NCBI GenBank assembly: GCA_021811365.1
Contig: JAJZPB010000001.1
Span: forward strand, 32,312-96,311
Direction: 5' to 3'
DNA: 64,000 nt
Source: a bacterium
Lineage (GTDB): Bacteria > Patescibacteriota > Minisyncoccia > Phycocordibacterales > Phycocordibacteraceae
This document shows positions 1-17,430 of the stretch, piece after piece. The first letter of the stretch is position 1; every line of letters begins with the position of its first letter. Both the position numbers and the translations under genes were made by a program. The notes beneath the pieces were generated by a model. It did not search any database. It was not told the origin of the DNA and was given only the letters and a program-made list of their open reading frames with translations.

Positions 1-50
1 ATTAAGGGCGAGGATCAGCGTTGCTGGCCCCGCCCCTTCGTCAAACGGTT

Positions 51-1400: not shown

Positions 1401-1421
1401 GGTAGTGAGGCGGTGGACAGT

Positions 1422-2273: not shown

Positions 2274-2302
2274 TTGACATTTGTATAGTTGCGTGCTAGG
2301 AT
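2274..2302 (+). promoter_or_regulatory. Candidate sigma70-like promoter (TTGACA-17 nt-TAGGAT) upstream of the secreted-protein gene
   Basis: ttgaca at 2274-2279, 17-nt spacer, taggat at 2297-2302, ~40 nt before the ATG at 2342. Confidence 0.35.
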
Positions 2303-2341
2303 ATCGGCAGTACAACAATCGAGCCATCACGGAGGAATCCC

Positions 2342-2833: not shown

Positions 2834-2947
2834 GAGGAGCGCACAATAACGGGCGACAAGGGACGGCTTACGCTGTCCCTTTTGCTTTGGCACACATTAG
2901 TGAAGTTGCGCGGTATCCACTGGTGCTGCGAAAACACACCTACTTGA

Positions 2948-3322
2948 TTGCCGTTCACAAACCCTCCCTCCTCCCATACATTCACTCCAATGAAGCAAGG
3001 CCACCGCTCAGGCGGCAAGTACGTTTCCAATCACACAACGGTCATTCCTGCAGCAGGAGAACTGTCTGACATAGCAGACCGACAATCAGAAGTAACAAAA
3101 ATATCACTCGACTTCATCAAGGCTGGTCTCCCATCTCTATCAGGGAAGCGTCGTGCCAAGCTCACGGAGCGACAGGGCAATCTATTACTCATGATACGGG
3201 ACAACTCCTCGATGCAGGAAGTCGTGGTGTACACATCCGATCCTTCCAAGACGAAGCGCGCGCTTTATCGGGATGGCAAGAAAGCCAGTATCGAAGTGTC
3301 GTTCGTGAAGCTGGAGAAGTGA
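2948..3322 (+). CDS. Hypothetical protein
   Basis: 124-aa ORF in a lower-GC patch. No recognizable motifs. Confidence 0.3.
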   Translation: MPFTNPPSSHTFTPMKQGHRSGGKYVSNHTTVIPAAGELSDIADRQSEVTKISLDFIKAGLPSLSGKRRAKLTERQGNLLLMIRDNSSMQEVVVYTSDPSKTKRALYRDGKKASIEVSFVKLEK

Positions 3323-3506
3323 GGCTCACTTAGGAGAACCCTTTTGCCCACCCTTCGCGTCTCGCTTCTTGCGTTTCGGTCGACAGACGGGGCACGAACC
3401 GCTGCCACGATACTGGTGTCCTTTGCTCCACATGCTGCACGAAGTCAGAACCTGTGGGCTATGAAAGTTGAAGACCTACCGCAGGACCTCGACTCGGTGC
3501 TGCGTC

Positions 3507-3962
3507 CTATGGGAACGTCTTGATCAAAAGCATTCCAGGACAGTCGTCATCAGGATCGTTGATGGTGCCGTGCTGAACAAAACCGAGGTGCTCATAGAAT
3601 TTCCAAGAATTGCTGTGCGTACCTGGGCTGTAGCATTGGATCTCCGTAAACGACTCACGCTTCGCGCTCTCTTCAATCTTCGCTATGAGGGCGCTGCCTA
3701 CGCCTTCCCCGCTATGTTTTGATGCCACTATGTACAGTTCTGCGGGTTTTTTCGTCTTCGCGTGCGCCTTAAGATATTCTGGTGCGTCTCTATAGCCCGC
3801 AACGCCTACCACCTCGCCCTCTTTCTCCGCAATATAATAACGTCCATTGCGCGTATCAATGTTGTGCGAAAGCTCATTTAAAAATTCGTTGTCATTCCAG
3901 TATTGAGCAAAAATTTTTTCCACGCTTTCCTTGTCTGCGTCTTCGTATTCTCGGATTTTCAT
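3507..3962 (-). CDS. GNAT family N-acetyltransferase
   Basis: 151 aa. GVAGY...ELYIVASKHSGEGVGSALIAKIEE matches GNAT motif A (acetyl-CoA binding loop) ahead of a C-terminal beta strand. Confidence 0.8.
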   Translation of the reverse strand: MKIREYEDADKESVEKIFAQYWNDNEFLNELSHNIDTRNGRYYIAEKEGEVVGVAGYRDAPEYLKAHAKTKKPAELYIVASKHSGEGVGSALIAKIEESAKRESFTEIQCYSPGTHSNSWKFYEHLGFVQHGTINDPDDDCPGMLLIKTFP

Positions 3963-4001
3963 ATTCTAAATTATATCGTGTGCGGTATTTCAAATAGTAC
4001 A

Positions 4002-4027
4002 GTGCCGCGGGGTTGCCCCCGCGGCAC
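4002..4027. repeat. Perfect GC-rich palindrome (11-bp stem, ttgc loop) resembling the IS200-end / REP-like hairpins
   Basis: gtgccgcgggg-ttgc-ccccgcggcac. Shares the ccgcgggg/ccccgcgg arms with the hairpins flanking tnpA at 785-810 and 1306-1345. Confidence 0.5.
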
Positions 4028-4079
4028 CAATCCATCAATAGATGGTCGTCAGACCAGCGCGCGGCATGCCTCGAGCAAG

Positions 4080-4274
4080 ATGGCCGACAGGGAGACTTCG
4101 GCGGCCATGAAGAGGGTCCGGTCCAACCCGCAGGAACTGAAGAAGGCAAGCAGTGAACTCAAGAGCAACTGGGAGAAAATAAAGAACGAAGCAGGGAAAT
4201 CCAAAAAGCGGGTAGGGAAGCCAGTAAAGAAAGCCGCTATGAAGGTAACCGCAAAGCGGGGGCATAAAAAGTAG
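4080..4274 (+). CDS. Small lysine-rich basic protein (64 aa)
   Basis: MADRETSAAMKRVRSNPQELKKASSELKSNWEKIKNEAGKSKKRVGKPVKKAAMKVTAKRGHKK. Internal ATG at 4080 of the longer track ORF, whose upstream part is AT-rich non-coding. Confidence 0.4.
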   Translation: MADRETSAAMKRVRSNPQELKKASSELKSNWEKIKNEAGKSKKRVGKPVKKAAMKVTAKRGHKK

Positions 4275-4302
4275 TCGAAGGGCAATCTTGTTTGCGCCCT
4301 TG

Positions 4303-4420
4303 GCTGGACACGTTCAGAACTCTGGACTGCCCACAGATCGAGAGGGAACTGGAGGATGTGGGCTTTGTATAAAACGAAAACCGCTCCTTCATCGCAAGAC
4401 GAAGGTTTGGTTTTCGTCTT
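4303..4420. repeat. Structured intergenic repeat, copy A (GTTCAGA-AC-TCTGGAC inverted repeat ... TTTGTATAAAA ... nested terminator-like hairpin)
   Basis: Aligns with copies at 5801-5910 and 6455-6570. Shared blocks are ggacacgttcagaactctg.actgg, gagagggaa.tggagg.g.ggg.tttgtataaaa.gaaaaccgc, and a hairpin with A- and T-tracts. Confidence 0.7.
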
Positions 4421-4630
4421 GCAGAAGAGGTCGTCAACAGTTCGTGTGTGAGGCCCCTCGCACTTATGGCGCTATAGTCGTGCGCGACGACCAGGAGGGC
4501 ATTGGGGGTGGTCCTTGACCCGATAGGTGGGCTGGACGGTTTGGCACGCGGGGCACAGCTCACGTATGTAGTCGCCTACGCAGAATGAAATAGCCGTCCT
4601 TGTGGAAGGGACGGCTATGCCAGAATGAGT

Positions 4631-5233
4631 TCACAAGATCGGAATAACTGCCGATGCTGTTATGCGCCATGAGGCACCGCGCCAGACAGATAGCAGATAT
4701 TCCTCGCTCCAAGCCGCATTTCCTATCGCTAGAACTGGAGAGTATGCCCTCACGTTGGGTATCCTGTCGTCCATTACAAAGTAAAGGCCATCTTCAAAAC
4801 CTGCGATGACCACAATATGTGCCGCGACGGTTGCTGTTGGATTCGTCCGTACCCAGATCGCAATAGGTTTATCGGCATTGCGCCTGAGAAACTCCAGACG
4901 GTCCGCGAGCGAAACCCGATGAATTTCCGTCAGGATTCCAAATTCACCCAACCCAGCTTTCATCATTTTGGGAAATTCAGGGTGGAACAATTGCCAAGCG
5001 AGTCCACGACGCGGAATTAAATCTACAGGTTTGCCCAACCGTGTGGCCACGAACCTTTCGCAATCCTCTCCGCAGAACGGTGGGTGGCGTAGAACAAAAT
5101 CAGGAACTTTGCCGAGTTTTACCAACAGAACCTCCTGCTGTCGCAGTTGCCCATTACTACAGTAACGTATAACCTGTATGCTGTCAAGGTTTGGCTCGGT
5201 ACATTCAACCTCCAAGTGCAACGCCCACCTCAC
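4631..5233 (-). CDS. Putative papain-like/C39-like cysteine peptidase (BtrH-like)
   Basis: 200 aa. An N-proximal Cys-containing segment (PFCGEDC), a downstream AAHIVVIAGFEDG...VMDD His/Asp block resembling the peptidase_C39-like GHxVV motif. Confidence 0.35.
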   Translation of the reverse strand: MRWALHLEVECTEPNLDSIQVIRYCSNGQLRQQEVLLVKLGKVPDFVLRHPPFCGEDCERFVATRLGKPVDLIPRRGLAWQLFHPEFPKMMKAGLGEFGILTEIHRVSLADRLEFLRRNADKPIAIWVRTNPTATVAAHIVVIAGFEDGLYFVMDDRIPNVRAYSPVLAIGNAAWSEEYLLSVWRGASWRITASAVIPIL

Positions 5234-5800
5234 GCAAGTTCGAATCCCACCAGCCCGGCGGGAAGCATCTTGCTGGGTAGGGAAGTAGGAGTATATAGCT
5301 GTTCGTTTGCTCTCAGACCATATCGTTAATATAACTTCGGCATAAAACAGAAGACCGCCTCACCGAGACGACCCGGTGGGCGATCTCTGTGTGAAGGCGG
5401 TAAGGCCGAAGCTCAGATCGCTTGAGAATTCGAAGGCCGAGCGTTTGCTGTCCTCCCAAGCCTCAAGATGCTGTCGGCTTTTGCAACTTTGTCTGGCGTA
5501 GGGCCAAGCTGTGCAGCGGTCCTGTCTCGTTATTCGCATTTCGCTTGAACAAAACCCCGCATGAACGCGGCGTGCTCGGCGCGGTGTAGGGTGTGTTTTG
5601 GCTCTCTGTCAATGAAGGCTGGAAGTGCGGCGACATACACCCCTTGGCTTACGTATATCGCCAGTCGATGTCGCATGCGTCGTTGACGCCACCGACGGAC
5701 CCATCCGGCTATTGACATGGTGAGTGTCTCCTCTGCTGTCTAAGCATAGTGTGCCACAAAGGGCACCAGGATTCCACGATTCAAGAACATTTTCCCCGTA

Positions 5801-5910
5801 CTGGACACGTTCAAAACTTTGAACTGGCCACCAGCGGAGTGTCTATGCTTGTATAATGAAGAAAAACCGCCACTCCGTCGCGAGACGAAGCTTTGGTTTT
5901 TCGTCTCGCC
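5801..5910. repeat. Structured intergenic repeat, copy B (GTTCAAA-AC-TTTGAAC inverted repeat, tataat, hairpin)
   Basis: Same architecture as copies A and C. Compensatory changes in the inverted repeat (caaa/tttg versus caga/tctg). Confidence 0.7.
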
Positions 5911-5919
5911 GAGAGGCGG

Positions 5920-6429
5920 TTAGTTGGTGCTGCCTGTCGTTGCGAGCACTTGTTTCCTATGTTTTTCCAGCAGAAACGTCAGAAGCATGTGCCCCTTCAA
6001 TCCCGAGAGATTGTTGGACGGTACGGGTTCGATCGGACCGATTGTCTCGCAGAGCACTTTTTTCATCTGCTCGACACAGTCCGACCCGCTTCCCTTAGCC
6101 ACCTTGGCCATGAACCCCACTCCCGCGAGCAGGAACCAGCCAGTGTGAACGATCGGCCCCATCTTTTCGCAGAGAGAGGCCACGCCGTCTCCTTGCGATG
6201 ATTTTACATGCGCCAGCCACCCTGAGGTTTCGACGTCACCACTCCATTCAACATACGCCCCCTCATGTTCCCCGAGTGGGAAGCGATACATGGGATCGGT
6301 TACCGCAAACACCACTTCGTCGTGGTGATCGTGGGGTATCACCCCATGCGTGAGCAAAATCGGAAAGTCCTTCATTGCGATACCCTCCAGGAAGGTGAAC
6401 AACCAGCTGGACAATGAATACCACGACAT
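5920..6429 (-). CDS. Hypothetical protein (169 aa)
   Basis: Coherent ORF. Its stop codon directly abuts repeat copy B. Confidence 0.5.
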   Translation of the reverse strand: MSWYSLSSWLFTFLEGIAMKDFPILLTHGVIPHDHHDEVVFAVTDPMYRFPLGEHEGAYVEWSGDVETSGWLAHVKSSQGDGVASLCEKMGPIVHTGWFLLAGVGFMAKVAKGSGSDCVEQMKKVLCETIGPIEPVPSNNLSGLKGHMLLTFLLEKHRKQVLATTGSTN

Positions 6430-6454
6430 TTCATCTTTGTCAGCTCCCCATTGT

Positions 6455-6570
6455 GGCCAAGTTCAGAACTCTGAACTGGGCGCAGGTTGAGAGGGAAGTG
6501 GAGGTGGTGGGGTTTGTATAAAATGAAAACCGCCCCTTCGCACGAAACGAAGGGTTGGTTTTCGTTTCGT
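6455..6570. repeat. Structured intergenic repeat, copy C (perfect GTTCAGA-AC-TCTGAAC inverted repeat ... TTTGTATAAAATG ... hairpin)
   Basis: Aligns with copies A and B. The hairpin cccttcg-cacgaaa-cgaaggg is flanked by aaaacc/ggtttt. Confidence 0.7.
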
Positions 6571-6582
6571 TGAGTGAGGCGA

Positions 6583-6813
6583 TTATACGCTGATGACTTC
6601 GCCGCGAGGGCCGTACACCATGACCATGGCCATGAACATCGTCATGCCGCAGCTCGTGTGACTGGTCGACGCGATTGCGGCTGCGGCACCATTGAAGCCA
6701 GCTTCCGTCAGGCGTCTCCTAATATCATCCTCCGACTTGGAAGATGCGACGATGCGTTTGGCGACCGTTTCTGCTTCGTCGGTCGTCATTTCGTTGAAGG
6801 GTTTTTGGGACAT
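6583..6813 (-). CDS. Small hypothetical protein (76 aa)
   Basis: The ORF stop abuts repeat copy C. A TTGACA-17-TACATA promoter-like element lies ~80 nt upstream on the minus strand. Confidence 0.4.
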   Translation of the reverse strand: MSQKPFNEMTTDEAETVAKRIVASSKSEDDIRRRLTEAGFNGAAAAIASTSHTSCGMTMFMAMVMVYGPRGEVISV

Positions 6814-6981
6814 CGTTCTAGCGTCCTTCCGGGCGAGGTAGAATTAAGGGACGAAGCGGACGGACTGCCCGCATCTGATTGTTTATGTAGCACGACAGAA
6901 TACATTTGTCAAGTTTGCTCCCCATGTTGCACGAAGTAAGAACCTATGCACCTGCGATTTAAACAAATAAAGAACCGCCCT

Positions 6982-7410
6982 TCACGGGCGGCTCCAGCCG
7001 AGACGTAGCCTTGCTAGTTCGCGCACTTCCTTCAGGTCTTTTTGTCCCTCTCTGGGGTATTTTGCAAATTCCTCCAGCAGGTCCTGTGGACATACGGGAT
7101 TGTTTACAAGCGCCATGCAGATGTACCAGTGGCGCTCGGTCGCGACTTCACGATGCTGGTCGAGCGTCACACGGACGCTTGCGGCAACGGCTTGACGCAG
7201 TACCCAATTCGAGGACCGTAACGCCTTGGTGGCAAGTTCTTGTATAAAGGCATCCGGAATGGCGGGAGAAGTATTACCGATGACGCTCGCGCGTACTGCG
7301 TCGTCCGGATCGCAGCCCAGTTTGCGGAGCTCGTCGCCAGGCGTATGGACGCTCGACGCTCTCCTCACTCGCTCGTATCGAGTCCCGTCTGACTTATCTG
7401 CGTAGCTCAT
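6982..7410 (-). CDS. Hypothetical protein (142 aa)
   Basis: ORF followed on the minus strand by a hairpin terminator (ccgccc-ttca-cgggcgg at ~6968-6990). Overlaps the next gene by 17 nt. Confidence 0.5.
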   Translation of the reverse strand: MSYADKSDGTRYERVRRASSVHTPGDELRKLGCDPDDAVRASVIGNTSPAIPDAFIQELATKALRSSNWVLRQAVAASVRVTLDQHREVATERHWYICMALVNNPVCPQDLLEEFAKYPREGQKDLKEVRELARLRLGWSRP

Positions 7411-7651
7411 AGTACATTGCCTCGCTTTTCAGGCCGCGTTTGCGGCCAGCTTCCTTCTCTTTGTGATCCAGGTAGATGACCCGCTCGGAGTCCACAACAC
7501 TGAACCCTGGGCAGTTCCGGAGGGACACAGTTCTTTTCTTTCTTCCCTCGAGCGTCCCGTACGACTGGGGTGATGCTATACGCCCGGCTCGGCATTTCTG
7601 CTTGCGGTGCTCTATGGCGGAGCGACCGCAGTGCTGGCACAGTTCATTCAT
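7394..7651 (-). CDS. Hypothetical zinc-ribbon-like small protein (85 aa)
   Basis: A CQHCG...C cysteine pattern near the N-terminus. Translationally coupled to 6982-7410. Confidence 0.4.
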   Translation of the reverse strand: MNELCQHCGRSAIEHRKQKCRAGRIASPQSYGTLEGRKKRTVSLRNCPGFSVVDSERVIYLDHKEKEAGRKRGLKSEAMYYELRR

Positions 7652-7790
7652 GGGTCTACTCCACAGTTTCCTACCGAAACCTAGCTAAACGGAGGAGAGG
7701 AGTCAATGCCAAGCCGCTAGTCGGACATGAAGGCAATAAAACAGTAGACCGCCCTCACCGAGACGAACCCAGTGAGGGGCTGGTCTTCGG

Positions 7791-8066
7791 TCAGGCGGGT
7801 TCCAGTTTGAAGTGCTGCTCGGGCTTCGTATCGTCGGCGGGCCAGATGACGCCATATCCGCGCTCTTTCCACCACGCATTGGCGAGTGGCGTTACGTGGC
7901 GTGCCCATTCGGCAACGCGCACGTCGACTTCCGCACGCTCATCTGGGCACATGAGTTCGAGCACCTTCTTGGAGGTCACCCGCTTCGTTTCGAGCCAGGC
8001 CGTTCTCAGTTGTTCAATGTAGGCGCGGTAGTCCGGGCATAGTTGCTCAAAAGCCGTTTGGTCCAT
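7791..8066 (-). CDS. Hypothetical protein (91 aa)
   Basis: ORF followed on the minus strand by a hairpin plus TGTTTTATT terminator (7745-7790). Confidence 0.45.
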   Translation of the reverse strand: MDQTAFEQLCPDYRAYIEQLRTAWLETKRVTSKKVLELMCPDERAEVDVRVAEWARHVTPLANAWWKERGYGVIWPADDTKPEQHFKLEPA

Positions 8067-8153
8067 CGTCTAGTGCAAGCCAAATGTGATAGACTGCCGG
8101 TTGGAGCATCTGCACTGCGCAGAAGCGCGTCATACAATGGAAAGGGCAGCAGC

Positions 8154-8855
8154 ATGTTGATTTATGCGCCTCCGGAACTTGCGGCGCGTGCCTCGCGCCT
8201 TGTCGCTGAAACTGGTGTGGCTATGGTAGATCCAGACGGGTGGTTTACTTACACGGGAGGGATTCGCAGTCCGGTGTACCTGCAAATCCGTGACCTGACT
8301 AAATATGCGCCACAATGGATGGAAGTTGTGCGGTGCATGGCGGAGTTCATCCGATGGGCGATGACTGACGCTGTTAGCGGAAGTCAGCGCATACCGGAGC
8401 CGATGAAAGGGGTGTACGGAGTTCCTGAAGGGGCAACGCTCCTTTCCGGTGCACTTGCGTACGAGCTTGGAGTAGGTGCCATACGTATCCATCAAGAAAG
8501 GAAAGCGTATGGCATAGGGCAGACTTTATTCGGTATCCGCCCCTTCGAACAAGCTTGTGTCCTTGAAGACACGAGCTCCACCGGTACAGCTGTTGTCGCA
8601 AAGGGTGTTGCGCCACTCCGAGCATGTGGGGTGCGCGTTGAACACGCATTTCTCTTCGCTTCTCATGGCCTCGGAGTTGCCGAAACATTTGAGAGATGCG
8701 GGGTCACCGGCTTCTGTCTGTGCCGATCAGAGGATATATTTGGCCATGTTCTTGAACGCTCACAACACGACGAGCGAACACGGAGAATCGTCAGAGCATG
8801 GTTCGAAGACCCTGAGACTGCCTCGAACGCCTACGTCGTCTCGCATCCAGCGTAG
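8154..8855 (+). CDS. pyrE: Phosphoribosyltransferase, orotate PRTase (PyrE)-like
   Basis: Start taken at the ATG at 8154, preceded by ggaaaggg. TYTGGIRSPVYLQIRD matches the PyrE PRPP/orotate loop, and VLEDTSSTGTAV matches the PRTase type-I PRPP-binding motif. Confidence 0.6.
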   Translation: MLIYAPPELAARASRLVAETGVAMVDPDGWFTYTGGIRSPVYLQIRDLTKYAPQWMEVVRCMAEFIRWAMTDAVSGSQRIPEPMKGVYGVPEGATLLSGALAYELGVGAIRIHQERKAYGIGQTLFGIRPFEQACVLEDTSSTGTAVVAKGVAPLRACGVRVEHAFLFASHGLGVAETFERCGVTGFCLCRSEDIFGHVLERSQHDERTRRIVRAWFEDPETASNAYVVSHPA

Positions 8856-8920
8856 TGGGAGGAAACGCTTGTTCGAAAATACGCCGCATCTACTCGACCT
8901 ACATTGAGAGCGCCGTTTCC

Positions 8921-8956
8921 ACGGCGTGATTACCCCAATCACGCTGTGCTTTTTAT
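8921..8956 (+). terminator. Rho-independent terminator after the pyrE-like gene
   Basis: acggcgtgatt-acccc-aatcacgctgt forms an 11-bp stem, followed by gctttttat. Confidence 0.6.
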
Positions 8957-9299
8957 CCCATCCATGCGAGGCATTGTACCGACGCAGACGAAAGCTATTT
9001 TGTAGCGGCAGAGACAGTGTTAAACCTCGGTTAAACCTCGCAAAGCGAGCCCTCGAGATCTTCGAGAGTTCGGAAGTGCTCGAGAAACGAGCCCTTCTCA
9101 ACGTCTTATTTCAGAGCTCGGTTGTGGACGGAAAAACCCAGTGTTTGCACTGCGTCCTCCCTTTGACACTATCCTCACCTTGACTAAACAACCTACTCTG
9201 CCCCAGGCCATATCGTTAATATAACTGTGGTGTAAAAAAGAAGGTCTTCTCGCCGTTGCTTGTGACGAGAAGACCAACGCAGGTTCTAGGTGTGCGAAC

Positions 9300-10526
9300 T
9301 CACTTCATGCGGTTGAGTAACGCAGCTTTTGCAGCAAGTTCTCTTTCGTACTGACTTGCATGCCGGTGCGCCAGTTCTCCAGCCGCCGTCGTGTAGTCGT
9401 CGAGGAGCGCTTGCAGGCGTAACGAGAGCTGAGGGTCCCCTTTGCCGACTTTCCTGAGAAGATACCGGATGAAGTCGCATTTATCGTGCCTATTTATGTC
9501 ATCCGGATTGATCCTCACGAACTCGCGAGTGCCAAGCGCTTGCCGAATTATGGCAAACCGCAACGGACGCAGGTCAGGCGTCCCGAAGGTGGTGTCGAGA
9601 AGACGACGCGCTACTCCGTACAGCGTGCCCCGGCTCCTGTTCTCCTGGAGCCAGTTTTTGTCCCCGAGTTCTGCCGCGTGTTCCAAAGTGAACGCGGCTT
9701 GTGTCGCAAGGAGTTCCCGGCTATAGGGCAGGTTCTCCATGCGCGCACACTCCACAACGCGCTTGAAGTAGAAGACGTATGGGGAAGACTGAAGAGGGCG
9801 GGATGCCGTCTCCCTCTGCAGAACCTCCTGGCGCATGAGCGCGTTGCCCCTTTGCTTCCATTCTTCCGGCACAGCTGCGGTCAACAGGAGTGCAAAGGAT
9901 TGGTACACGTACATGTAGCCATTTGCGCCGTCCACAGGAACTGTTGCTTCGAGATGAAGACTCTTGAAGAGACGCTCCAGCTGCTGCCCGTCCTCCCTGT
10001 ATAGCTCCATGAGGAAGATGATCCACGTGTTGTAGACGAAGATGTGGCCATTACGGTGATCGTGCGCGGACAGGTCCGAGCAAGGGGCTTCAGCAAGGAT
10101 CTTGGCGCTGTACACCAAAAGATCCGTCAGAAAGGCACGCAGATGGGGGGTGAGCGCCTCAGCAACGCGTTCCCGATGTTCCGGCACGAGATCCCCAAAG
10201 CAGGTGTGACTCCAAAGACCGGAGTAAACCCAGTGCCCGCACAGAGGTCGGAGGGACCGCTTACCGAATGGGTAATAACTGTCACCTCCGTACCCATAGA
10301 ACGGCACTAAGCTCTGCGCTAGGCCTCGGGCCTTGAAGGCCGGGTTGATGTCAGGGTTTTCGAGCAAGCTGTAGAGGCGATCGTCAACCCCGAGGTACTC
10401 TTCGAACAGAGCGTTCCCCGTCCTTTCAGCTTCTTCCGTCAGGCCGAAGTGGAATCGCAGCAGTTTGCGCACCGCATTGCGATAGCGCAGGGCATTGCGT
10501 TGTTCAGTTGTCTGAGCAAAAGCCAC
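9300..10526 (-). CDS. Hypothetical protein (408 aa)
   Basis: Long coherent ORF, followed on the minus strand by a ggtcttctcg/cgagaagacc hairpin plus T-tract terminator (9228-9275). No recognizable motifs. Confidence 0.55.
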   Translation of the reverse strand: MAFAQTTEQRNALRYRNAVRKLLRFHFGLTEEAERTGNALFEEYLGVDDRLYSLLENPDINPAFKARGLAQSLVPFYGYGGDSYYPFGKRSLRPLCGHWVYSGLWSHTCFGDLVPEHRERVAEALTPHLRAFLTDLLVYSAKILAEAPCSDLSAHDHRNGHIFVYNTWIIFLMELYREDGQQLERLFKSLHLEATVPVDGANGYMYVYQSFALLLTAAVPEEWKQRGNALMRQEVLQRETASRPLQSSPYVFYFKRVVECARMENLPYSRELLATQAAFTLEHAAELGDKNWLQENRSRGTLYGVARRLLDTTFGTPDLRPLRFAIIRQALGTREFVRINPDDINRHDKCDFIRYLLRKVGKGDPQLSLRLQALLDDYTTAAGELAHRHASQYERELAAKAALLNRMK

Positions 10527-10723
10527 AGCACGACTCCTTTGTGTTGTTGTGAAAGGATCTGGGCGGCCTTTTTATGGTAAGTATACGGCCACTTTGGTCC
10601 GGTCAAATTAGTACCAAAAAATACGAAATTGTCAATTAGGCGTATTGGTTCACCTATTCGCGCGCTCCCCTGGGGAGCAGGACCTACTCAGGCAGGGAAG
10701 TGGGAGTATATTAAAGTTCTTTT

Positions 10724-10785
10724 GCTCCGCATGTAGGTCATTGTTCTAACCTAGATTTAGAGGCAAGAAAGGGTATTTCTAAGCA
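10724..10785. repeat. Imperfect direct repeat, left copy (attL-like), flanking the AT-rich island
   Basis: tgctccgcatgtaggtcattgttctaacctaga...aggcaagaaagggtatttc aligns with 13184-13245. Confidence 0.6.
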
Positions 10786-10840
10786 TCAATGGCTCTTATC
10801 TATTTGTTCCAATCATCACGAAAACTGCTACGATGAAAGT

Positions 10841-11350
10841 ATGGGAAAGAAGAACAATTCAGAACATAATCCACTCAAAGAAGCATATGCGCTTTTGCAA
10901 GTATCTTCCTCGAGCGAGCTAGCTCGCGAGTTTATTAAAGAAGACCAAAGGCTCTTAAAAGCACAAATCTGGGATTACAAAAAGTCAGGACTTGTTTTAA
11001 ATATAGTTAAAGAAATAGTTGAATCTGCCATTGATAATGAGTTTACAACACGTGATAAGGACAGTGAGGATGTTTTAAAAACCATTTTATGGTTTTGGTA
11101 CCATCATGCTATCGGATATGCAATCTGGGGTTATAAAGATAAGGCGGAAGCGCTCGAGTTTTCTTCAAAGGCGCTCAAGTACCAGACTTCTGATAATCCA
11201 AATAAAATCACGCGTTTACTCTACCTCTTGGTTCGCGACGAAGAGAAAGACGCGGCTCTTTGGTTGGAAACTATCGTCAATGAACCAGATAAAACTGCTT
11301 CTCACGGAATAATGAAAGAGTATTTGGATGGAAATTTCTTCAAACCCTGA
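10841..11350 (+). CDS. Hypothetical protein (169 aa) encoded in the low-GC island
   Basis: AT-rich codon usage distinct from the surrounding genome. Trp/Tyr-rich helical protein with no assignable family. Confidence 0.55.
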   Translation: MGKKNNSEHNPLKEAYALLQVSSSSELAREFIKEDQRLLKAQIWDYKKSGLVLNIVKEIVESAIDNEFTTRDKDSEDVLKTILWFWYHHAIGYAIWGYKDKAEALEFSSKALKYQTSDNPNKITRLLYLLVRDEEKDAALWLETIVNEPDKTASHGIMKEYLDGNFFKP

Positions 11351-11460
11351 GTTCAATAAGTAAACGCAACACTTCCGCTAATCTAGTTGATATTTCTTAT
11401 TATAACATATAGTATCCCTTTTGGATGGAGGGCCCTCTGTCTATGTAGTGTAAAAGGAGA

Positions 11461-11655
11461 TTGACAGTGGCTAAATCGAACGCTTTAAGGAAGGTGGATG
11501 TCTCAGCTACCGCTCCGCTCATGTTGCGGCGCGTTACTACAAAACCACTAACGATTATTCCCATGATGAACATGACTGTCGTTTCATCGCCTGGCAGACT
11601 TCCTGAAATGAGTGATCAGGTGGGTGACACGACTGCACCAAGGCACGATCGGTAA
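11461..11655 (+). CDS. Small ORF (64 aa), a weak candidate substrate peptide for the adjacent ATP-grasp ligase
   Basis: Convergent with the ATP-grasp gene. The C-terminal half is rich in T/S/D/E (TVVSSPGRLPEMSDQVGDTTAPRHDR). Coding status uncertain. Confidence 0.15.
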   Translation: MTVAKSNALRKVDVSATAPLMLRRVTTKPLTIIPMMNMTVVSSPGRLPEMSDQVGDTTAPRHDR

Positions 11656-11726
11656 GTTCGAATAAGTAGAAATAAGGCCGGAGCAGTGATGCTCCGGCCT
11701 TATATATTTGCTCAAAACTACAGATT

Positions 11727-12770
11727 TCAAAGCGACTTGAGCATGCTTGCGACAGCTTGCGGAATCGATAATTCTGCGTAGTGTTCAATCCACCCCCATT
11801 GCCCGCAAGGGTTTACTTCAAGAAAGACGTATTCTCCATTGGGCATTTCTATGAGATCAATTGCGCCGTAGTTTAATTCAATTTTCCGCATGAAGCGAAG
11901 TAAGTGCTTCTGAACTATAATTGGGAGTTCGACACGAATGTGTTCAACATTGTCGAAGTCGTAGTGACGCCAATCAGTCCTTGTCATTGAACTTGCTTGA
12001 GAGTCAATCCGACATGCCAAGACCTGATTGCCTATTACCATAACCCTGTACTCGTAACGTTTCTCAACGTATTGTTGCGCAAAGAGAGGACATGCTTGTA
12101 TTGCGTCTGGGCTGTTGAGTAACTCCTCATGCGAGAATCGCTCGGAATACAAGAAGTCATTACCAGCCGCGTCCAATTTCATATAGCCAAGCGTTTTTAG
12201 AAGAAGGCCATTTTCTTTTGTGGAAAAGGCCATAACACTTTCTGGATCATTGCTGATGATGGTTTGCGGAGTCTTGAGCCCGCAGCGTTGCGCAATTTGC
12301 TGCTGATACAATTTGTTACTGGAAACGCGGACGATGCTTTCTTTCCGGTTAACCCATTTGCAATCAAGAACAGATACGAACGATAGAAATGCACATCGCG
12401 ATTCATTTTCCGCAAAACGTATTTCCAAGGACGCATCAGCCTCTCGCGCATCATCACTGCTCTCGCGTATATACCACGCAACATCGATGTCTCGGATCTG
12501 AAGACGAGCTTCCACAAGTTCTTGCTCGACATATTTCAGCACATCGATGAACCCAAGAACAGAACCGGAATCATCAAGTGCCATATGTATAACGGCCTGA
12601 TCGAGGATTCGACCCGGGTCAAAGACATAGACACACAGACCTACTTCTATGCATGGAGCAACGAAGGCGTCGTAGTAATAACGCTCACTGAGGCTAGCTA
12701 CAAACAGAACATTTTTCACGAGCGTTCTCCCTTTCATGGATCGATGAATCGTCCAAAGAAAAGGATACAA
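11727..12770 (-). CDS. ATP-grasp family ligase (RimK/MdnC-like)
   Basis: 347 aa. YEYRVMVIGNQVLACRIDSQ...RTDWRHYDFDN...GAIDLIEMPNGEYVFLEVNPCGQWGWI matches the ATP-grasp C-terminal core, including the E-x-N Mg-binding motif. Confidence 0.8.
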   Translation of the reverse strand: MYPFLWTIHRSMKGRTLVKNVLFVASLSERYYYDAFVAPCIEVGLCVYVFDPGRILDQAVIHMALDDSGSVLGFIDVLKYVEQELVEARLQIRDIDVAWYIRESSDDAREADASLEIRFAENESRCAFLSFVSVLDCKWVNRKESIVRVSSNKLYQQQIAQRCGLKTPQTIISNDPESVMAFSTKENGLLLKTLGYMKLDAAGNDFLYSERFSHEELLNSPDAIQACPLFAQQYVEKRYEYRVMVIGNQVLACRIDSQASSMTRTDWRHYDFDNVEHIRVELPIIVQKHLLRFMRKIELNYGAIDLIEMPNGEYVFLEVNPCGQWGWIEHYAELSIPQAVASMLKSL

Positions 12771-13183
12771 CGAATCTAATGTTTTTCAATAGTTCATAGC
12801 TGACGACTTTGAAACTATTAACTGGGCTAAGGAGTATCCCGCGCCGGACTTCACGATACAGCAAATCAAGGCGGGTTCCGGCCGACATTGGTGGAGCGGA
12901 CGCCGCACGCATCGAGGAGATCAAAGGCACCCCCTCAATCTGATTGTGGGAGTGGCCGAAGTATTCCGTAGTGGCAATATAGAGGAGAAAAAGGAGGCTC
13001 TTCCAGAGCCCGGTTAGAACCTAGAACTCAAAGGCAAAAAACTCAGTGTTTCCACCAAGAAAGACCTTGAGGTGACTTCAAAAAGCTTTCTTGCGGTACG
13101 TGCGTAAAATCCGGTGTTTGAACCTAGAAATTGTGAGGCAGATAAAGACGAAACGGAGGCTTTCGCCTCCGTTCGTCCAGTCT

Positions 13184-13245
13184 TGCTCCGCATGTAGGTC
13201 ATTACTCTAACCTAAGGACGCGAGGAAGAATAAGGGTATTTCAGA
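13184..13245. repeat. Imperfect direct repeat, right copy (attR-like), flanking the AT-rich island
   Basis: tgctccgcatgtaggtcattactctaacctaagga..gaggaagaataagggtatttc aligns with 10724-10785. Confidence 0.6.
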
Positions 13246-13327
13246 GTCTTCGAGCCACGGGTCGGCCTGTTGAGACACTCGCGCCCCAGAGGACCACAGC
13301 AGGCCACAAGAGAGGTATGATGGGAGC

Positions 13328-14044
13328 ATGTCTCCAGACGAGATCGGGAAAGCGGCAATCGACTTTGCCAAGAAAAACAAGAATAAGATCGCCAATGAGC
13401 TCACCGACCTCAGCCGCTTCGTACCGGATGATCATCCGATTTCTGTGTTTATGGCGGGGTCACCGGGTGCGGGTAAGACCGAGTTCTCAAAGGAACTTCT
13501 CGGCATATTGGAGGCAGATGACCAACGTAAGGTGGTGCGTATTGATGGCGATGATATACGCGAGCGTATGCCGGGGTATGTCGGCAACAATTCGGCCTTG
13601 TTTCAAGGCGCAATTTCCATAGTAGTTGAGAAGATTCACGACCTCGTACTCGACAAGAAACAGAGCTTTATTCTCGATGGAACGTTCTCGAAATACGATA
13701 AGGCCGCGGACAACATTCGGCGTTCATTGCGCAAGAACCGAATCGTCTTTATTTTCTACGTCTACCAAACGCCCCATACCGCGTGGCGGTTTACTCAAGC
13801 CCGCGAGCGCCTCGAGGGGAGAAACATACCAAAGTCTGCCTTTATCGAGCAGTTCTGCGGGGCTAAGGAAACAGTCGAGCGGCTACATCGAGAGTTCACG
13901 GATAAAATAGTACTCTTCTTGGTGAAGAAAGACTTCAGTACGAGCGCAACTGAGGAGGTGGTAAAAATGATTGATCCAGCCACGTCGATTGACTCATATA
14001 TCGGCGAGCGATACACTAAAGAAGAACTTGAGAAATCACTATGA
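13328..14044 (+). CDS. Zeta-toxin family kinase (PezT/zeta-like, P-loop)
   Basis: 238 aa. The Walker A motif VFMAGSPGAGKTEF and the VVRIDGDDIRE motif are characteristic of zeta toxin UNAG kinases. Confidence 0.75.
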   Translation: MSPDEIGKAAIDFAKKNKNKIANELTDLSRFVPDDHPISVFMAGSPGAGKTEFSKELLGILEADDQRKVVRIDGDDIRERMPGYVGNNSALFQGAISIVVEKIHDLVLDKKQSFILDGTFSKYDKAADNIRRSLRKNRIVFIFYVYQTPHTAWRFTQARERLEGRNIPKSAFIEQFCGAKETVERLHREFTDKIVLFLVKKDFSTSATEEVVKMIDPATSIDSYIGERYTKEELEKSL

Positions 14045-14253
14045 AATGGCTTACAAAAATACTACGAAATGACGAACCTGAGGCGACAACTGTCGCTCGC
14101 ACGCCGTACATGAGCGAGTATAACGGCCTTTCGGATTTTCTTCGCAATGCTCCACAGCAAGAAAAGATTGATGTTTTTACAGAAGCTGCAAAACGTGCAA
14201 GCGAAGATCAAAGACGAACGCTTGAGAGGGCCAGAGTTCTGCACTCCAGCTAA
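14041..14253 (+). CDS. Small hypothetical protein (70 aa) overlapping the zeta-toxin stop by 4 nt (ATGA)
   Basis: Translational coupling to the zeta-like gene. Acidic/helical sequence. Possible cognate antitoxin in a non-canonical (downstream) position. Confidence 0.35.
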   Translation: MKWLTKILRNDEPEATTVARTPYMSEYNGLSDFLRNAPQQEKIDVFTEAAKRASEDQRRTLERARVLHSS

Positions 14254-14326
14254 AAACTAAAGAGCGTCACCCTCGGGTGACGCTCTTTAGTGTGCCTGTC
14301 TCCAGGCGTAACATACATTGCCCAGT

Positions 14327-14398
14327 ATAGGCTAGCTCCGCGGGTAGGATTCGAACCTACGACCAATCGATTAACAGTCGACCGCTCTACCACTGAGC
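14327..14398 (-). tRNA. tRNA-Asn (anticodon GTT)
   Basis: The reverse complement folds as a cloverleaf: acceptor tccgcgg/ccgcgga, D-arm gctc-agtggta-gagc, anticodon stem gtcga/tcgat with loop ctGTTaa, and T-arm gtagg-ttcgaat-cctac. CCA is not encoded. Confidence 0.85.
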
Positions 14399-14531
14399 TA
14401 CCGCGGAATGCGTCTTTGCCAACAAGAGAATGCAAGAGGCCCTTCTCGGCACGCCTCTCAAAGAGGCATGGGCATTGTAGCGGAAAAAGTTAGCAACGCA
14501 AAGGGCGGAAAAGGTTTGGTATAGTGCGCGT

Positions 14532-14774
14532 GTGTATAGGCTTTTTTATCGTCCTACCTGTCCGTACTGTCTGAAAGTGCTTCGCGCCAGCTGTGATCTT
14601 GGAGTCGAGCTAGACCTCCACGATATCGCGGAGGAACCAAACCGCGCGGCACTTATAGAGCGCGGTGGAAAACAGCAGGTACCTTTTTTCGTTGACGAGG
14701 AGAAAGGCATCGCGATGTACGAGTCGGATGATATCGTTGCGTATCTCGAAAGCGCTAAGAAGCTTTCAGCCTAA
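14532..14774 (+). CDS. Glutaredoxin-like protein (CPYC active site)
   Basis: 80 aa with RPTCPYCLKV at the N-terminus and a thioredoxin-fold pattern. Confidence 0.8.
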   Translation: MYRLFYRPTCPYCLKVLRASCDLGVELDLHDIAEEPNRAALIERGGKQQVPFFVDEEKGIAMYESDDIVAYLESAKKLSA

Positions 14775-14776
14775 GT

Positions 14777-15007
14777 ATGTATGTAAAAGTGTTCGTGGTA
14801 GCTGACGCAAAGCGAGAATCGGTTACGATGCGGGGCAATGCTTTTGAAATAACTGTGCGCGAACCGGCGCAGCAGAACAGAGCAAACACTCGAGTGCGCG
14901 AGATTATCGCGGCACATTTTGTTGTCCCGCTTGCTCAAGTGAGGATCATAAGCGGATATCATACAGGAGCAAAAATGCTCTCATTGCCGGACGCCGAGCA
15001 GAAATGA
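14777..15007 (+). CDS. DUF167/YggU family protein
   Basis: 76 aa. ...RGNAFEITVREPAQQNRANT...ISGYHT matches the UPF0235/YggU pattern. Starts 3 nt after the glutaredoxin stop. Confidence 0.65.
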   Translation: MYVKVFVVADAKRESVTMRGNAFEITVREPAQQNRANTRVREIIAAHFVVPLAQVRIISGYHTGAKMLSLPDAEQK

Positions 15008-15045
15008 AATACGCCCGCGGCTGTGCCGCGGGCGTATTTCATTTT

Positions 15046-15597
15046 TTACGAACGCAGGCTCTTGAGGTAGGCGAGCATGGTGTCCGCATCAGAGACCTCG
15101 AACGGGTCATCCGATGCATTGTCGGCAAGGCCAGGCTCGATGAAAAGCTTCTTAATTTTGCCATCTTCGACGTACATCGAGTATCGCCAGGAACGGTCGC
15201 CGAAACCAAGATTCTCCTTCTTCACGAGCATGCCCATGCCTCGGGTGAAGTCCGCGTTGCCGTCCGGAAGCATTTTCACCTTCGACACGCCAAGTTTATC
15301 CGCCCACTGTTTCATCACGAAAGCGTCATTGACCGCGATGCAGTATAGGTCGTCGATGCCGAGAGATCTAAATTCATCGTAGTGCCTCTCGTATCCGGGA
15401 AGGTGGGTAGAGGAACAGGTGGGGGTAAATGCGCCGGGGAGTCCAAATACGACAACTTTTCTACCATCGAAAATTTCACTCGCGGATACGTCCTGCCAAC
15501 GGTACGGATTCTCGCCGCCGACCGATTCGTCGCGCACGCGCGTTTTAAACACGACGGATGGAACTTGCGCGCCTTCTGTTGTTGGTTTTTGCGCCAT
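15046..15597 (-). CDS. Peroxiredoxin, Prx5-type (AhpC/TSA family)
   Basis: 183 aa. VVFGLPGAFTPTCSSTHLPGY contains the peroxidatic Cys in the PGAFTPTCS motif typical of Prx5. Confidence 0.85.
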   Translation of the reverse strand: MAQKPTTEGAQVPSVVFKTRVRDESVGGENPYRWQDVSASEIFDGRKVVVFGLPGAFTPTCSSTHLPGYERHYDEFRSLGIDDLYCIAVNDAFVMKQWADKLGVSKVKMLPDGNADFTRGMGMLVKKENLGFGDRSWRYSMYVEDGKIKKLFIEPGLADNASDDPFEVSDADTMLAYLKSLRS

Positions 15598-15665
15598 ATA
15601 TACTGTATGACAGGTTACTACTAGTAGAGGGAGTATACACTAATGGCCTAATCCGCAGCATTCCT

Positions 15666-16031
15666 ATGAATATCTCCTTTAACACAACGCAATTTGCCGA
15701 TATATCAGAAACGTCGCGCATAGCGGTGGAAGTCAAACTGCGCCCGATTGAACGGCTACTCGCGAGCGATAAGGACGTCGCGCTGCTTGACGTGGAGCTT
15801 GCGCATGCGCCACCGGAGGGTCGTTCTGCAACCCCAGTGCGGCTTACGGCAACGCTCCAGTTCAAAAACTACGTACTGCACGCAGAAGCAGTGAAGCCGA
15901 CGCCAGAGAGCGCCGCCGACCGCGTGCGTTCGGCGCTCGAGCAGGAGATACGCAGAGTACGGGGGAAAAAGCGCGGACTAGTGAAGCGCGGTGCGGCGCA
16001 GCTGAAAAAGATGCTGCGGTTCGGGGCGTGA
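15666..16031 (+). CDS. hpf: Ribosome hibernation promoting factor / RaiA (YfiA) family
   Basis: Start taken at the internal ATG at 15666. MNISFNTTQF...IAVEVKL...LTATLQFKNYVLHAEA matches the HPF beta-alpha-beta-beta-beta-alpha fold signature. Confidence 0.7.
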   Translation: MNISFNTTQFADISETSRIAVEVKLRPIERLLASDKDVALLDVELAHAPPEGRSATPVRLTATLQFKNYVLHAEAVKPTPESAADRVRSALEQEIRRVRGKKRGLVKRGAAQLKKMLRFGA

Positions 16032-16046
16032 ACAAGAGCGCGGCGC

Positions 16047-16919
16047 CTACGGCGCCGCGCTCTTTTTGGCAAACTCTGAGTATGTCATTTCTCTTTTCCC
16101 CTCGGGGATGACGCGCTCAATAACGAATGCGCCGTTTACCAGCACTGCCTTCGTAATTTTTACGCGGCTGCCATGCGGGGTGAAAAAATGCGTGCCAATG
16201 GTATCCGTATACGCGCGGTACTTGTTCCAGTTCTCCTCACCGGGAGCAGAGAGGTCAAGTTGTCCGTCTTCCTTTTTAAACTTACGCGCACGCGTTGCTT
16301 CTGACTCGTCTTGTGCAGTCGGCGTGCACAGTCCCTCTTCAAATGCGGGGAGCGTTTCGATAAGCAGTTTTGCGCCCGCCTCGATGAGCCGCGGACGCAG
16401 TTCCCGTGCCGTTTCGCCGGGAGTGATGGCGAGCGTTTCTTGCGCGAGTATATCGCCTGCGTCAAGCTTCCGAACCATTTTTTGAATAGTTACGCCTGTC
16501 TCACGTTCTCCGTTAAGAAGCGCTGTTTCCATCGGCGTCGCGCCGCGATACTTCGGGAGCAGGGAGTAGTGGACGTTGAGTACGCCAAGGGGGAACGCAG
16601 CAATGAGCTCCTCCGGGAAGATTTTTCCGTACGCAACGACGACTGCGTACGAGGCGCCAAACGCGGCAATGGACGCTTGTGCAGCTGAGTCAAGTTCGGG
16701 CGGCGTTAGCACAGGGATGCCGCGCTCCTCCGCAAGCCGCCTGACCGGAGAAGGCTGCAGTTCAAGGCCGCGTCCTTGTGGCGCGTCAGGGTTGGTGATG
16801 ACTACTCTCGGCGTAAAGTCTGCCTCAAGCAATGCCTCAAGCGTATGAGCGGCAACCGAGGGAGTGCCAAAGAACACAAATGGCTTACACAGTTGCGTCA
16901 TGGTTCGGCGAGGTTTCAA
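16047..16919 (-). CDS. fmt: Methionyl-tRNA formyltransferase
   Basis: FFGTPSVAAHTLEAL...VVITNPDAPQGRGL...LNVHYSLLPKYRGATP matches Fmt N- and C-terminal domain signatures. Overlaps the def 3' end. Confidence 0.9.
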   Translation of the reverse strand: MKPRRTMTQLCKPFVFFGTPSVAAHTLEALLEADFTPRVVITNPDAPQGRGLELQPSPVRRLAEERGIPVLTPPELDSAAQASIAAFGASYAVVVAYGKIFPEELIAAFPLGVLNVHYSLLPKYRGATPMETALLNGERETGVTIQKMVRKLDAGDILAQETLAITPGETARELRPRLIEAGAKLLIETLPAFEEGLCTPTAQDESEATRARKFKKEDGQLDLSAPGEENWNKYRAYTDTIGTHFFTPHGSRVKITKAVLVNGAFVIERVIPEGKREMTYSEFAKKSAAP

Positions 16920-17430
16920 TCAGGTGGTCGGCGTGGTCGATAAAAAGTATGCCGTTTAGGTGATCAGTTTCGTGTTCAAATATCTGGGCGAGGAGCCCTC
17001 CTCCGCCACGCTCAAAACGCGTGCCGTTAGGGTGCCGCGCGCGCACGGTAACGCGCTCGTGGCGCCGCGTGGTGCCGTACACGCCGCGAACCGAGAGACA
17101 CCCTTCCTCCATTTCAGCTCGACGGCGCGAGGTTTTGACGATTTCTGGATTGATATAAACGTCCACCTGTGGCCCGGGTGCCGGCAGCGCGTCCGGCTCG
17201 TTTTCATCGTGAGGAGGTGCCGGAAGGGTGCGGTCGACGCGCACGATGAAAATGCGATAGGGAACAGCGATTTGCGGTGCGGCAAGTGCAACCCCGTCCG
17301 GCTCGCGGTTGAGCGCCTCAGCCATGTCCTGCAGAATAGACATAAGCTTCTGAGACCCGAAAAGGTTTTCGGGTACTGGCACGGCGATTTCGCGCAATAC
17401 GGGCGCATCCTCTTGCACGATGGTCTTCAT
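16885..17430 (-). CDS. def: Peptide deformylase
   Basis: Motifs GxGxAAxQ-like (ALAAPQIAV), EGCLS and HEHETDHLNG are present. Confidence 0.9.
   Translation of the reverse strand: MKTIVQEDAPVLREIAVPVPENLFGSQKLMSILQDMAEALNREPDGVALAAPQIAVPYRIFIVRVDRTLPAPPHDENEPDALPAPGPQVDVYINPEIVKTSRRRAEMEEGCLSVRGVYGTTRRHERVTVRARHPNGTRFERGGGGLLAQIFEHETDHLNGILFIDHADHLIETSPNHDATV

Follow-up and report, generated by a model that had tools for sequence, protein, structure and literature searches.

The stretch of DNA considered here (below, the window) comprises 64,000 nucleotides of the contig JAJZPB010000001.1, which belongs to a member of the Phycocordibacteraceae (Patescibacteriota). Its forward strand carries a compact cassette of two genes, namely a gene encoding a P-loop kinase of the zeta-toxin fold and, directly downstream, a gene encoding a small helical protein, hereafter called the partner. 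Together these genes probably represent an autonomous, horizontally mobile type II toxin–antitoxin (TA)-like module in which the toxin gene comes first. The kinase gene (13328-14044) encodes 238 amino acids (aa); its open reading frame (ORF), with the motifs GSPGAGKT and IDGDDIR, was found both in the ORF list and in the sequence. The partner gene (14041-14253) encodes 70 aa with the conserved core LSDFLRNAPQQEKIDVFTEAAKRASEDQRR, and its ATG overlaps the TGA of the kinase gene in the tetranucleotide ATGA (14041-14044), which indicates translational coupling. Both ORFs and their overlap agree with the original prediction made from the sequence of the window. The kinase is the proposed toxin and the partner the proposed antitoxin.

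Downstream of the partner stop codon, a perfect 17-bp inverted repeat (14256-14291) was found, followed by TTTTT on the minus strand. Both features indicate that this is the terminator of the neighbouring tRNA-Asn gene and possibly a bidirectional one. The tRNA-Asn(GTT) gene (14335-14407, minus strand) was identified using ARAGORN and Rfam (75.6 bits); it is convergent with the pair, its 3' end faces the cassette, and it begins 81 nt past the partner stop codon. Thus, the tRNA-Asn gene of the original prediction is present, on the minus strand, at a distance of 81 nt and not of 73 nt, and the end coordinate given there for the locus (14398) falls inside this tRNA gene. A sigma-70-like site at 13989-14017 was considered as an internal promoter for the partner gene, but the scan gave 2 such sites versus 1.5 expected, and this candidate was dropped as evidence.

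Comparison of the kinase with Pfam gave a match to Zeta_toxin (PF06414) with E = 4.1e-40 and 137.8 bits at a cut-off of 22.3 bits, covering profile positions 5-183 of 199. The other Pfam matches were AAA_33 (40.4 bits, E = 4e-10) and APS_kinase (24.3 bits, E = 4e-5), so that Zeta_toxin was 30 orders of magnitude ahead of any other family and the zeta-like assignment was upheld against AAA_33 and other P-loop kinases. The best NCBIfam models were PSTK (25.1 bits, cut-off 290.5, E = 1e-5) and APS kinase (20.9 bits, cut-off 127), and the equivalog model of the streptococcal PezT gave 16 bits. The weak AAA_33 and APS_kinase matches and the name 'adenylylsulfate kinase-like', which is given to some homologues in JGI records, could point to a housekeeping core kinase related to APS, gluconate, shikimate or nucleoside kinases. 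Such an identity is very improbable: Zeta_toxin scored 137.8 bits versus at most 40 for the others, the NCBIfam housekeeping models gave 10-25 bits at cut-offs of 127-670, and, as described below, the gene is missing from syntenic relatives, has varying flanks and an unrelated context in every lineage, and is carried on plasmids and prophages. The housekeeping, core-gene identity that would have contradicted the original prediction was thus not borne out.

Modeling of the kinase using AlphaFold2, built on 20 homologues, led to a model with a predicted local distance difference test (pLDDT) value of 88.5 and a predicted template modeling (pTM) score of 0.83. A Foldseek comparison of this model with solved structures placed zeta (1gvn, 3q8x) and PezT (2p5t) at ranks 1-8 (E from 1e-8 to 1e-7, TM-score 0.63-0.70), followed by ng_zeta1 (6eph, 6epg) and AvrRxo1 (4z8q), all four being toxins of validated TA pairs; for the whole series, the TM-scores were 0.55-0.70 and the identities 12-18%. 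The 18 top whole-fold matches are all TA toxins, and PFKFB, PSTK and polynucleotide kinase ranked lower. In a profile search against the PDB sequences, Ser-tRNA(Sec) kinase and PezT were found with comparable E-values (3e-4 and 9.5e-4). These results bear on an alternative according to which the pair is a non-toxic two-subunit accessory enzyme, where the kinase acts on a metabolite or nucleic acid and the partner activates or targets it and does not inhibit it. The equally good profile matches to Ser-tRNA(Sec) kinase and PezT, PSTK as the top NCBIfam model and the polynucleotide kinases among the fold matches suit such an enzyme, whereas the lead of Zeta_toxin in Pfam and the uniform TA identity of the best whole-fold matches point away from it; on all the evidence, including that from the partner and the genomic context given below, this alternative is unlikely.

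For the comparison of individual residues, the zeta sequence of pSM19035 was used, which showed a 100% match to Enterococcus plasmid genes annotated as 'zeta toxin family protein'. In zeta, D67 is the catalytic base, and the GTXR motif binds UDP-N-acetylglucosamine (UDP-GlcNAc, UNAG) in both zeta and PezT (PMC6362051). Alignment using hhalign placed RIDGDDIR of the window kinase on VIDNDTFK of zeta, pairing K50 of the Walker A motif GSPGAGKT (13457-13480, residues 44-51) with K46 and D75 of the IDGDDIR motif (13541-13561, residues 72-78) with the catalytic base D67. In addition, a global alignment matched E101 to E100, D117 to E116, G118-T119 to G117-T118 and R165 to R171 of zeta. Across the family alignment of 20 sequences, the aligned catalytic and motif residues show hardly any variation, and the P-loop, D73 and D75 show none. 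The segment D117-G118-T119-F120-S121 (13676-13690) takes the position of E116 and the UNAG-binding GTXR motif (G117-T121) of zeta, where the Gly and Thr are kept and the Arg at position 4 is replaced by Ser; this register comes from a low-identity global pairwise alignment and is probable, not certain. The family consensus at this position is LDGTFSK, i.e., GT[FLS][SA], with Ser or Ala instead of Arg. The missing Arg suggests that the substrate of the kinase may differ from UDP-GlcNAc, and it would also suit an accessory enzyme. Judged from its sequence, the window kinase is a member of the Zeta_toxin superfamily with an intact catalytic core and without the canonical feature of UNAG kinases. 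A total of 2984 kinase homologues were found, and the best 120 listed span 235-306 aa, mostly 237-239 aa.

A scan for the kinase with one genome per species revealed at least 558 loci, and 80 of them were kept for analysis. The latter come from many classes of the candidate phyla radiation (CPR)/Patescibacteria, from Halomonadaceae, Pseudomonas, Thiotrichaceae, Ferruginibacter, Bdellovibrionales and others, and the family is therefore spread over CPR/Patescibacteria, Gammaproteobacteria, Bacteroidota and Bdellovibrionota. In almost all of the 80 loci, an ORF of 50-70 aa starts at or just past the kinase stop codon. A hidden Markov model of the partner matched exactly once, co-directionally and immediately after the kinase gene, in each of the 78 informative genome loci (in the other two, the contig stops before the partner position). 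The partner was also found in 52 of the 52 viral contigs of IMG/VR that carry the kinase, which makes 130 of 130 informative loci. The 4-nt ATGA overlap is present in 49 of 79 genome loci, the window being counted, and the distances in the remainder are mostly from -17 to +20 nt. No upstream ORF family is conserved among the 80 loci, and no other flanking family is common to them, except for guaBA within Halomonadaceae. Together with the 558-nt spacer upstream of the window kinase, which contains no conserved ORF, this supports the earlier claim that an upstream antitoxin is absent. The original prediction had offered two readings, namely a pair in reversed order and a stand-alone zeta-like kinase; the presence of the downstream ORF in all informative loci favours the former and contradicts the latter.

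A relative of the kinase with a different surrounding was found on the Pseudomonas aeruginosa plasmid pNY5530-NR1 (locus L088, 2947-3756). This protein of 269 aa shows about 40% identity with the window kinase and has no partner ORF; the next gene encodes a lytic transglycosylase on the opposite strand, and PcfJ and strawberry-notch genes are located nearby. It may mark the edge of the paired clade or be a truly partnerless relative.

The exhaustive profile search gave 627 cluster representatives of the partner, nearly all of 52-70 aa; a sequence search with the 70-aa protein alone found eight close homologues only. All named homologues are annotated as 'hypothetical protein' without a Pfam domain. 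A Pfam search with 49 members of the partner family gave nothing significant (best E = 0.0022, in two members; DUF6940 in four, best E = 0.025), NCBIfam and PADLOC gave no partner match, no PDB sequence was found below E = 0.48, and the Foldseek search gave no match for the fold. The members share the motif [FL][SA]DF..x.A[SP]..EK..VF.EAA..AN.DQR with the window protein. In the AlphaFold2 model of the partner, a short N-terminal amphipathic helix is followed by disorder at residues 11-20, by two short helices and by a long helix spanning residues 39-69, for which the pLDDT is about 95. In a JGI record (L083), the small partner ORF is called at 8714-8914, and in the NCBI assembly GCA_035533615.1 (L082) it is not; this suggests that the partner family is probably under-annotated in public genomes.

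The omission of the ORF in the NCBI annotation of L082, a close relative, and the lack of a database family for the small protein could be taken to mean that the kinase is a stand-alone 'orphan' and the 70-aa ORF a chance reading frame. This is hardly conceivable for an ORF that is conserved as a protein across phyla with a specific motif in every informative locus, has hundreds of cluster representatives and a confidently predicted core helix, and co-diverges with the kinase. All these characteristics indicate that the 70-aa ORF is a real gene. It was described as a small acidic ORF in the original prediction, which is incorrect: the window protein contains 11 D+E versus 12 K+R and has an isoelectric point (pI) of 8.1, and the family median is 10.0. 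The basic character of the partner counts in favour of an accessory enzyme.

The divergence of the two proteins was found to be correlated, with a Mantel r of 0.76 that was reached in 0 of 500 permutations. The partner diverges faster, its mean identity being 31% versus 50% for the kinase, and this argues against an accessory enzyme. Antitoxins usually evolve faster than toxins. In about 10 loci (L006, L010, L022, L038, L057, L205, L214 and L221-L223), the kinase is split, truncated or internally deleted and the partner is intact, with no true converse; the sole apparent one (L013) contains masked bases, and some of the kinase breaks may be assembly errors.

According to the comparison of genomic contexts, the cassette is an accessory, mobile one. 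Its nearest copies, with 79-82% protein identity, adjoin glutathione S-transferase genes or glycosyltransferase clusters and are not located beside a tRNA-Asn or an ATP-grasp gene. The nucleotide similarity to these copies is 72%; it sets in no more than 27 nt from the start codon of the kinase and stops inside the partner ORF. The guanine–cytosine (GC) content is 0.487 for the cassette, 0.459 for the low-GC variable segment (10500-14300), in which the cassette is accompanied by an ATP-grasp gene and an orphan ORF of 169 aa, and 0.575 for the core region at 14.4-36 kb. On the other side of the tRNA-Asn gene, a block at 14532-17430 comprises grx-like, DUF167, peroxiredoxin, HPF-like, fmt and def genes and ends at this tRNA, as it also does in the loci L093, L097, L106 and L107. 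Five metagenomic relatives (L093, L097, L103, L106 and L107) share parts of the def-fmt-prx-DUF167-grx-tRNA-Asn block; the tRNA-Asn gene was seen in four of them and the cassette in none. Thus, the pair is missing from four syntenic relatives at the tRNA-Asn locus; these are more distant relatives, and an identical neighbouring peroxiredoxin was found only in the same sample. Past the tRNA-Asn gene, L097 contains genes of a P-type ATPase and DsbA, and L106 those of an AI-2E transporter, AlgH and VanY, and these sequences have no match anywhere in the 64-kb window. Since the gene content past the tRNA-Asn gene is wholly different among the relatives, conserved synteny ends at this gene, which marks a synteny breakpoint.

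Of the 78 loci, 10 have a tRNA gene no more than 300 nt away from the cassette, whereas 1.4 such loci would be predicted by the density of tRNA genes in the outer flanks (Poisson P of about 2e-6). These tRNAs have nine anticodons, and in 10 of 10 cases the 3' end is directed toward the cassette, as in the window: the neighbouring tRNAs located upstream are on the same strand and those located downstream are on the opposite strand. Such geometry is expected of elements integrated at tRNA 3' ends. In addition, the pair is flanked on the Shewanella plasmid pSA70-4 by an integrase-like gene (DUF3596) on one side and by a fragment of an integrase gene on the other. In the left 14 kb of the window, no integrase was found, and an IS200-like Y1 transposase, GNAT and unknown proteins are encoded there instead; a repeat search in positions 1-15000 revealed no duplicate of the tRNA-Asn end.

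The original prediction had considered the locus to be an integration hotspot next to a repeat-flanked island. The hotspot is supported by the synteny break, the low GC content and the enrichment of tRNA genes, but no recognizable pair of attachment (att) sites and integrase (int) gene was found. The repeats in question (10722-10753 and 13183-13214, 94% identical) are two copies of a five-copy intergenic family and not detectable duplications of the tRNA end. These 32-nt repeats had been tried as att-like copies of the tRNA-Asn 3' end; their resemblance to it, seen by eye and using MAFFT, was rejected because the local-alignment score of 22, compared with 22-24 elsewhere in the window, is indistinguishable from chance. 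The patchy, mobile-element-borne and context-free spread of the pair is typical of selfish or defence cassettes, and this, together with the absence of co-occurring pathway genes, is a further argument against an accessory enzyme.

The 52 viral contigs with the kinase are mostly prophages of 30-55 kb. Recurrent neighbours in the viral loci are genes of a CI-like repressor, a CII-like activator, the anti-repressor Ant and primosomal or replication proteins, which in the proteobacterial prophages corresponds to the immunity/early region. This region is a classic site of exclusion genes. Furthermore, the partner core occurs in longer proteins of 125-187 aa, and for five of these no kinase ORF was found on the contig: L170 (1112-1669), L171 (1452-2003), L231 (579-956), L229 (96-659) and L230 (164-631). 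In these proteins, the core is joined to unrelated, partly Cys-rich extensions, and they may be phage-borne antitoxin mimics. The neighbours of the L171 gene encode a phrog_98/YopX-like protein and a phage glycosyltransferase, and that of the L170 gene encodes a phage DNA methyltransferase (phrog_799).

The location in prophage immunity regions and the proteins with the partner motif on phage contigs suggest an abortive-infection role with decoys. Accordingly, the pair could be a dedicated anti-phage system in which infection frees the kinase and which some phages counter with partner-like decoys. This reading is possible, if rather unlikely. No partner-like gene was found in 50,697 cultured phage genomes; the single INPHARED record of the pair carries the label UNVERIFIED_ORG and has a truncated kinase; and the contigs of the longer proteins are 0.9-15 kb in length, so that a kinase elsewhere on the element is possible. 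The original prediction had mentioned, for a stand-alone kinase, a component of an abortive-infection or other defence system, and this did not find support in PADLOC-DB v2.0: neither gene of the pair has a match to a defence system there, and the best hit of the kinase (E = 0.0014) covers the P-loop portion only. A more specific version, in which the pair is an abortive-infection TA system with a substrate other than UDP-GlcNAc and the core of about 35 residues, [FL]SDF...EAA..AN.DQR, is a portable kinase inhibitor taken up by phages of CPR and other bacteria into larger proteins as an anti-defence decoy, seems quite improbable.

The TA-like reading is preferred because of the TA-toxin fold and intact core of the kinase, the coupled and co-inherited second gene, its faster evolution and the selfish distribution of the pair. 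To our knowledge, the characterized zeta-fold kinases are all toxins of TA pairs. General traits of type II TA systems were also found, namely small, co-directional and overlapping genes, co-inheritance and horizontal mobility. Toxicity, neutralization by binding, lability of the partner, the substrate and the biological role are parts of this reading that we infer.

Several observations weigh against a TA module. The kinase is very conserved for a TA toxin, with 58-65% identity across CPR classes and a near-constant length, which could also fit a beneficial enzyme and is counted in favour of an accessory one. The incomplete GTXR motif means that the canonical poisoning mechanism is not simply transferable. 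The partner is basic and the kinase near neutral, which is the inverse of the common pattern of an acidic antitoxin and a basic toxin, and the partner resembles neither epsilon nor PezA nor Arc1 and shows no recognizable DNA-binding fold. Finally, the 10:0 asymmetry of broken kinases has the expected direction and slightly favours a TA module, but it was not significant after correction for gene length (p of about 0.1). The missing Arg, the basic partner and the high conservation of the kinase call for caution and keep alive the alternative of an activating or nucleic-acid-targeting subunit.

If the pair is a TA module as preferred here, the following mechanism can be assumed. ATP would be held by K50/T51 of the P-loop, and D75 would serve as the catalytic base. 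The free kinase would phosphorylate an essential nucleotide-type metabolite, and growth arrest would follow. The phosphorylated substrate is UDP-GlcNAc for canonical zeta and NAD (nicotinamide adenine dinucleotide) for AvrRxo1; as the Arg of GTXR is missing, the substrate of the window kinase could be other than UDP-GlcNAc. The partner would be translated by termination–reinitiation at the ATGA overlap and would consist of a flexible N-terminus and a helix-turn-long-helix core ([FL]SDF..A...EK..VF.EAA..AN.DQR). By binding to the kinase, this FSDF/long-helix core would cover the cleft for ATP or the substrate in the manner of epsilon, and the flexible N-terminal part would make the partner labile. 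The carriers of the pair include islands inserted at tRNA 3' ends, plasmids and prophages (here in the immunity region), and its role would therefore most likely be stabilization of the carrier element, abortive infection/exclusion, or both.

Other features of the same part of the window were also noted. The upstream neighbour of the cassette in the low-GC segment (11727-12770, minus strand) encodes an ATP-grasp protein of the type of the graspetide/microviridin maturases MvdC/MvdD, with 188 bits for TIGR04187 and 172 bits for TIGR04185, both under the equivalog cut-offs; an evident precursor peptide for it was not seen. The five-copy intergenic repeat mentioned above has a length of about 30-65 nt and the core TTTGCTCCnCATG...GAACC. 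Its copies (1338-1368, 3422-3452, 6914-6946, 10721-10753 and 13183-13214) have one orientation and all lie within the window's first 14 kb. Three of them are placed between convergent genes. The copies at 10722 and 13183 form a small hairpin on the minus strand, and one copy of the family is located 58 nt from the IS200-like Y1 transposase gene (846-1277). This placement and the proximity of the transposase suggest elements similar to REP/RAYT (repetitive extragenic palindromes and their associated tyrosine transposases). A second family includes direct repeats of about 100 nt with 77-95% identity (4288-4417, 5801-5903 and 6437-6565), whose ends carry a short inverted repeat, ACGAAGG.TTGGTTTTCGT; these are set among orphan ORFs without a Pfam match.

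Thus, what is known here is the Zeta_toxin superfamily, and what is new is a large clade of zeta-fold kinases with an unnamed, strictly conserved downstream partner family. The kinase clade extends over at least 558 species genomes plus 52 viral contigs, and 627 cluster representatives are available for the partner. If the partner is an antitoxin, it would define a new antitoxin family and account for a group of 'orphan' zeta toxins, pipelines in which the small ORF goes unannotated could be corrected, and a two-gene system would be available to probe the substrates of zeta-fold kinases without the UNAG motif. The pair would be among the few mobile toxin modules abundant in CPR/Patescibacteria, where conflict systems are poorly known, and if it is an abortive-infection system and phages do carry decoys of the partner, this would be the first defence/counter-defence pair described for Patescibacteria. 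Interest in the pair would grow if toxicity, a new substrate or a defence/counter-defence relation holds. No paper was found that links zeta toxins to CPR/Patescibacteria or describes a downstream partner, the coverage of the literature being incomplete.

In canonical epsilon/zeta and PezA/PezT modules, the antitoxin gene is located upstream. The window kinase shares with epsilon/zeta of pSM19035 and PezAT of Streptococcus pneumoniae the PF06414 domain, the best fold matches (TM-score 0.64-0.70), the Walker A Lys, the catalytic Asp, equivalents of E100, E116, T118 and R171, and carriage on mobile elements. However, the gene order is reversed, no epsilon, PezA or omega is present, the identity of the kinases is 15-18%, and the Arg of GTXR is replaced. 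The partner is basic and is shorter than epsilon, whose length is about 90 aa, and the Pfam search linked it neither to epsilon nor to HTH_3. As neither an upstream antitoxin nor a complete GTXR motif was found, the pair was not assigned to the canonical UNAG-kinase epsilon/zeta or PezAT systems.

In gene order, the pair resembles the AvrRxo1–Arc1 system of Xanthomonas, Acidovorax and Burkholderia, an experimentally validated case of a zeta-like toxin with a downstream antitoxin (PMC4938570). In both, a zeta-fold toxin gene comes first and a small helical neutralizer (a putative one in the window) follows directly on the same strand, the GC content is below that of the host genome, the flanks vary between species, and the first gene is sometimes inactivated with the downstream gene intact (PMC4938570). 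The structure of AvrRxo1 was also found among the matches of the window kinase (4z8q, E = 1.4e-5), but it ranks below zeta and PezT and the identity is about 12%. AvrRxo1, a type III-secreted effector that phosphorylates NAD, comprises 414-421 aa in the listed homologues of plant pathogens. Arc1 differs from the partner as well, with 81-98 aa in most homologues and the motif KExFD(x25-27)[YL]ExxYY (PMC4938570). This motif is missing from the 70-aa partner and from its family consensus, and no sequence or fold match of the partner to Arc1 was found, although the PDB library contains the Arc1 structures (4z8q etc.). The pair is therefore not a member of the AvrRxo1–Arc1 family.

Zeta-fold toxins with unrelated antitoxins have been described, namely ng_epsilon1/ng_zeta1 of Neisseria, PezAT-Mtb (Rv0366c–Rv0367c) and EzeT of E. 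coli, and some non-canonical zeta toxins lack GTXR and probably act on other substrates (PMC10532202, PMC6362051). The window kinase is similar to them in that ng_zeta1 is among its fold matches and that it lacks, like the mycobacterial Rv0366c, the canonical UNAG-kinase feature. The antitoxin of those systems is encoded upstream (ng_epsilon1 and PezA-Mtb, the latter of the ribbon-helix-helix type) or fused N-terminally (EzeT), whereas the window partner is encoded by a separate downstream gene and belongs to a different, unnamed family. In a RefSeq survey of 2023, many proteins that carry a Zeta_toxin domain were found without PezA or epsilon, most such toxins had no known antitoxin, and new antitoxins were sought only upstream (PMC10532202). 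The window kinase would belong to this 'orphan' PezT/zeta class, and its antitoxin was most likely missed because the search looked upstream. Since the conserved partner lies downstream, the 'orphan' kinases of this clade would not be orphans.

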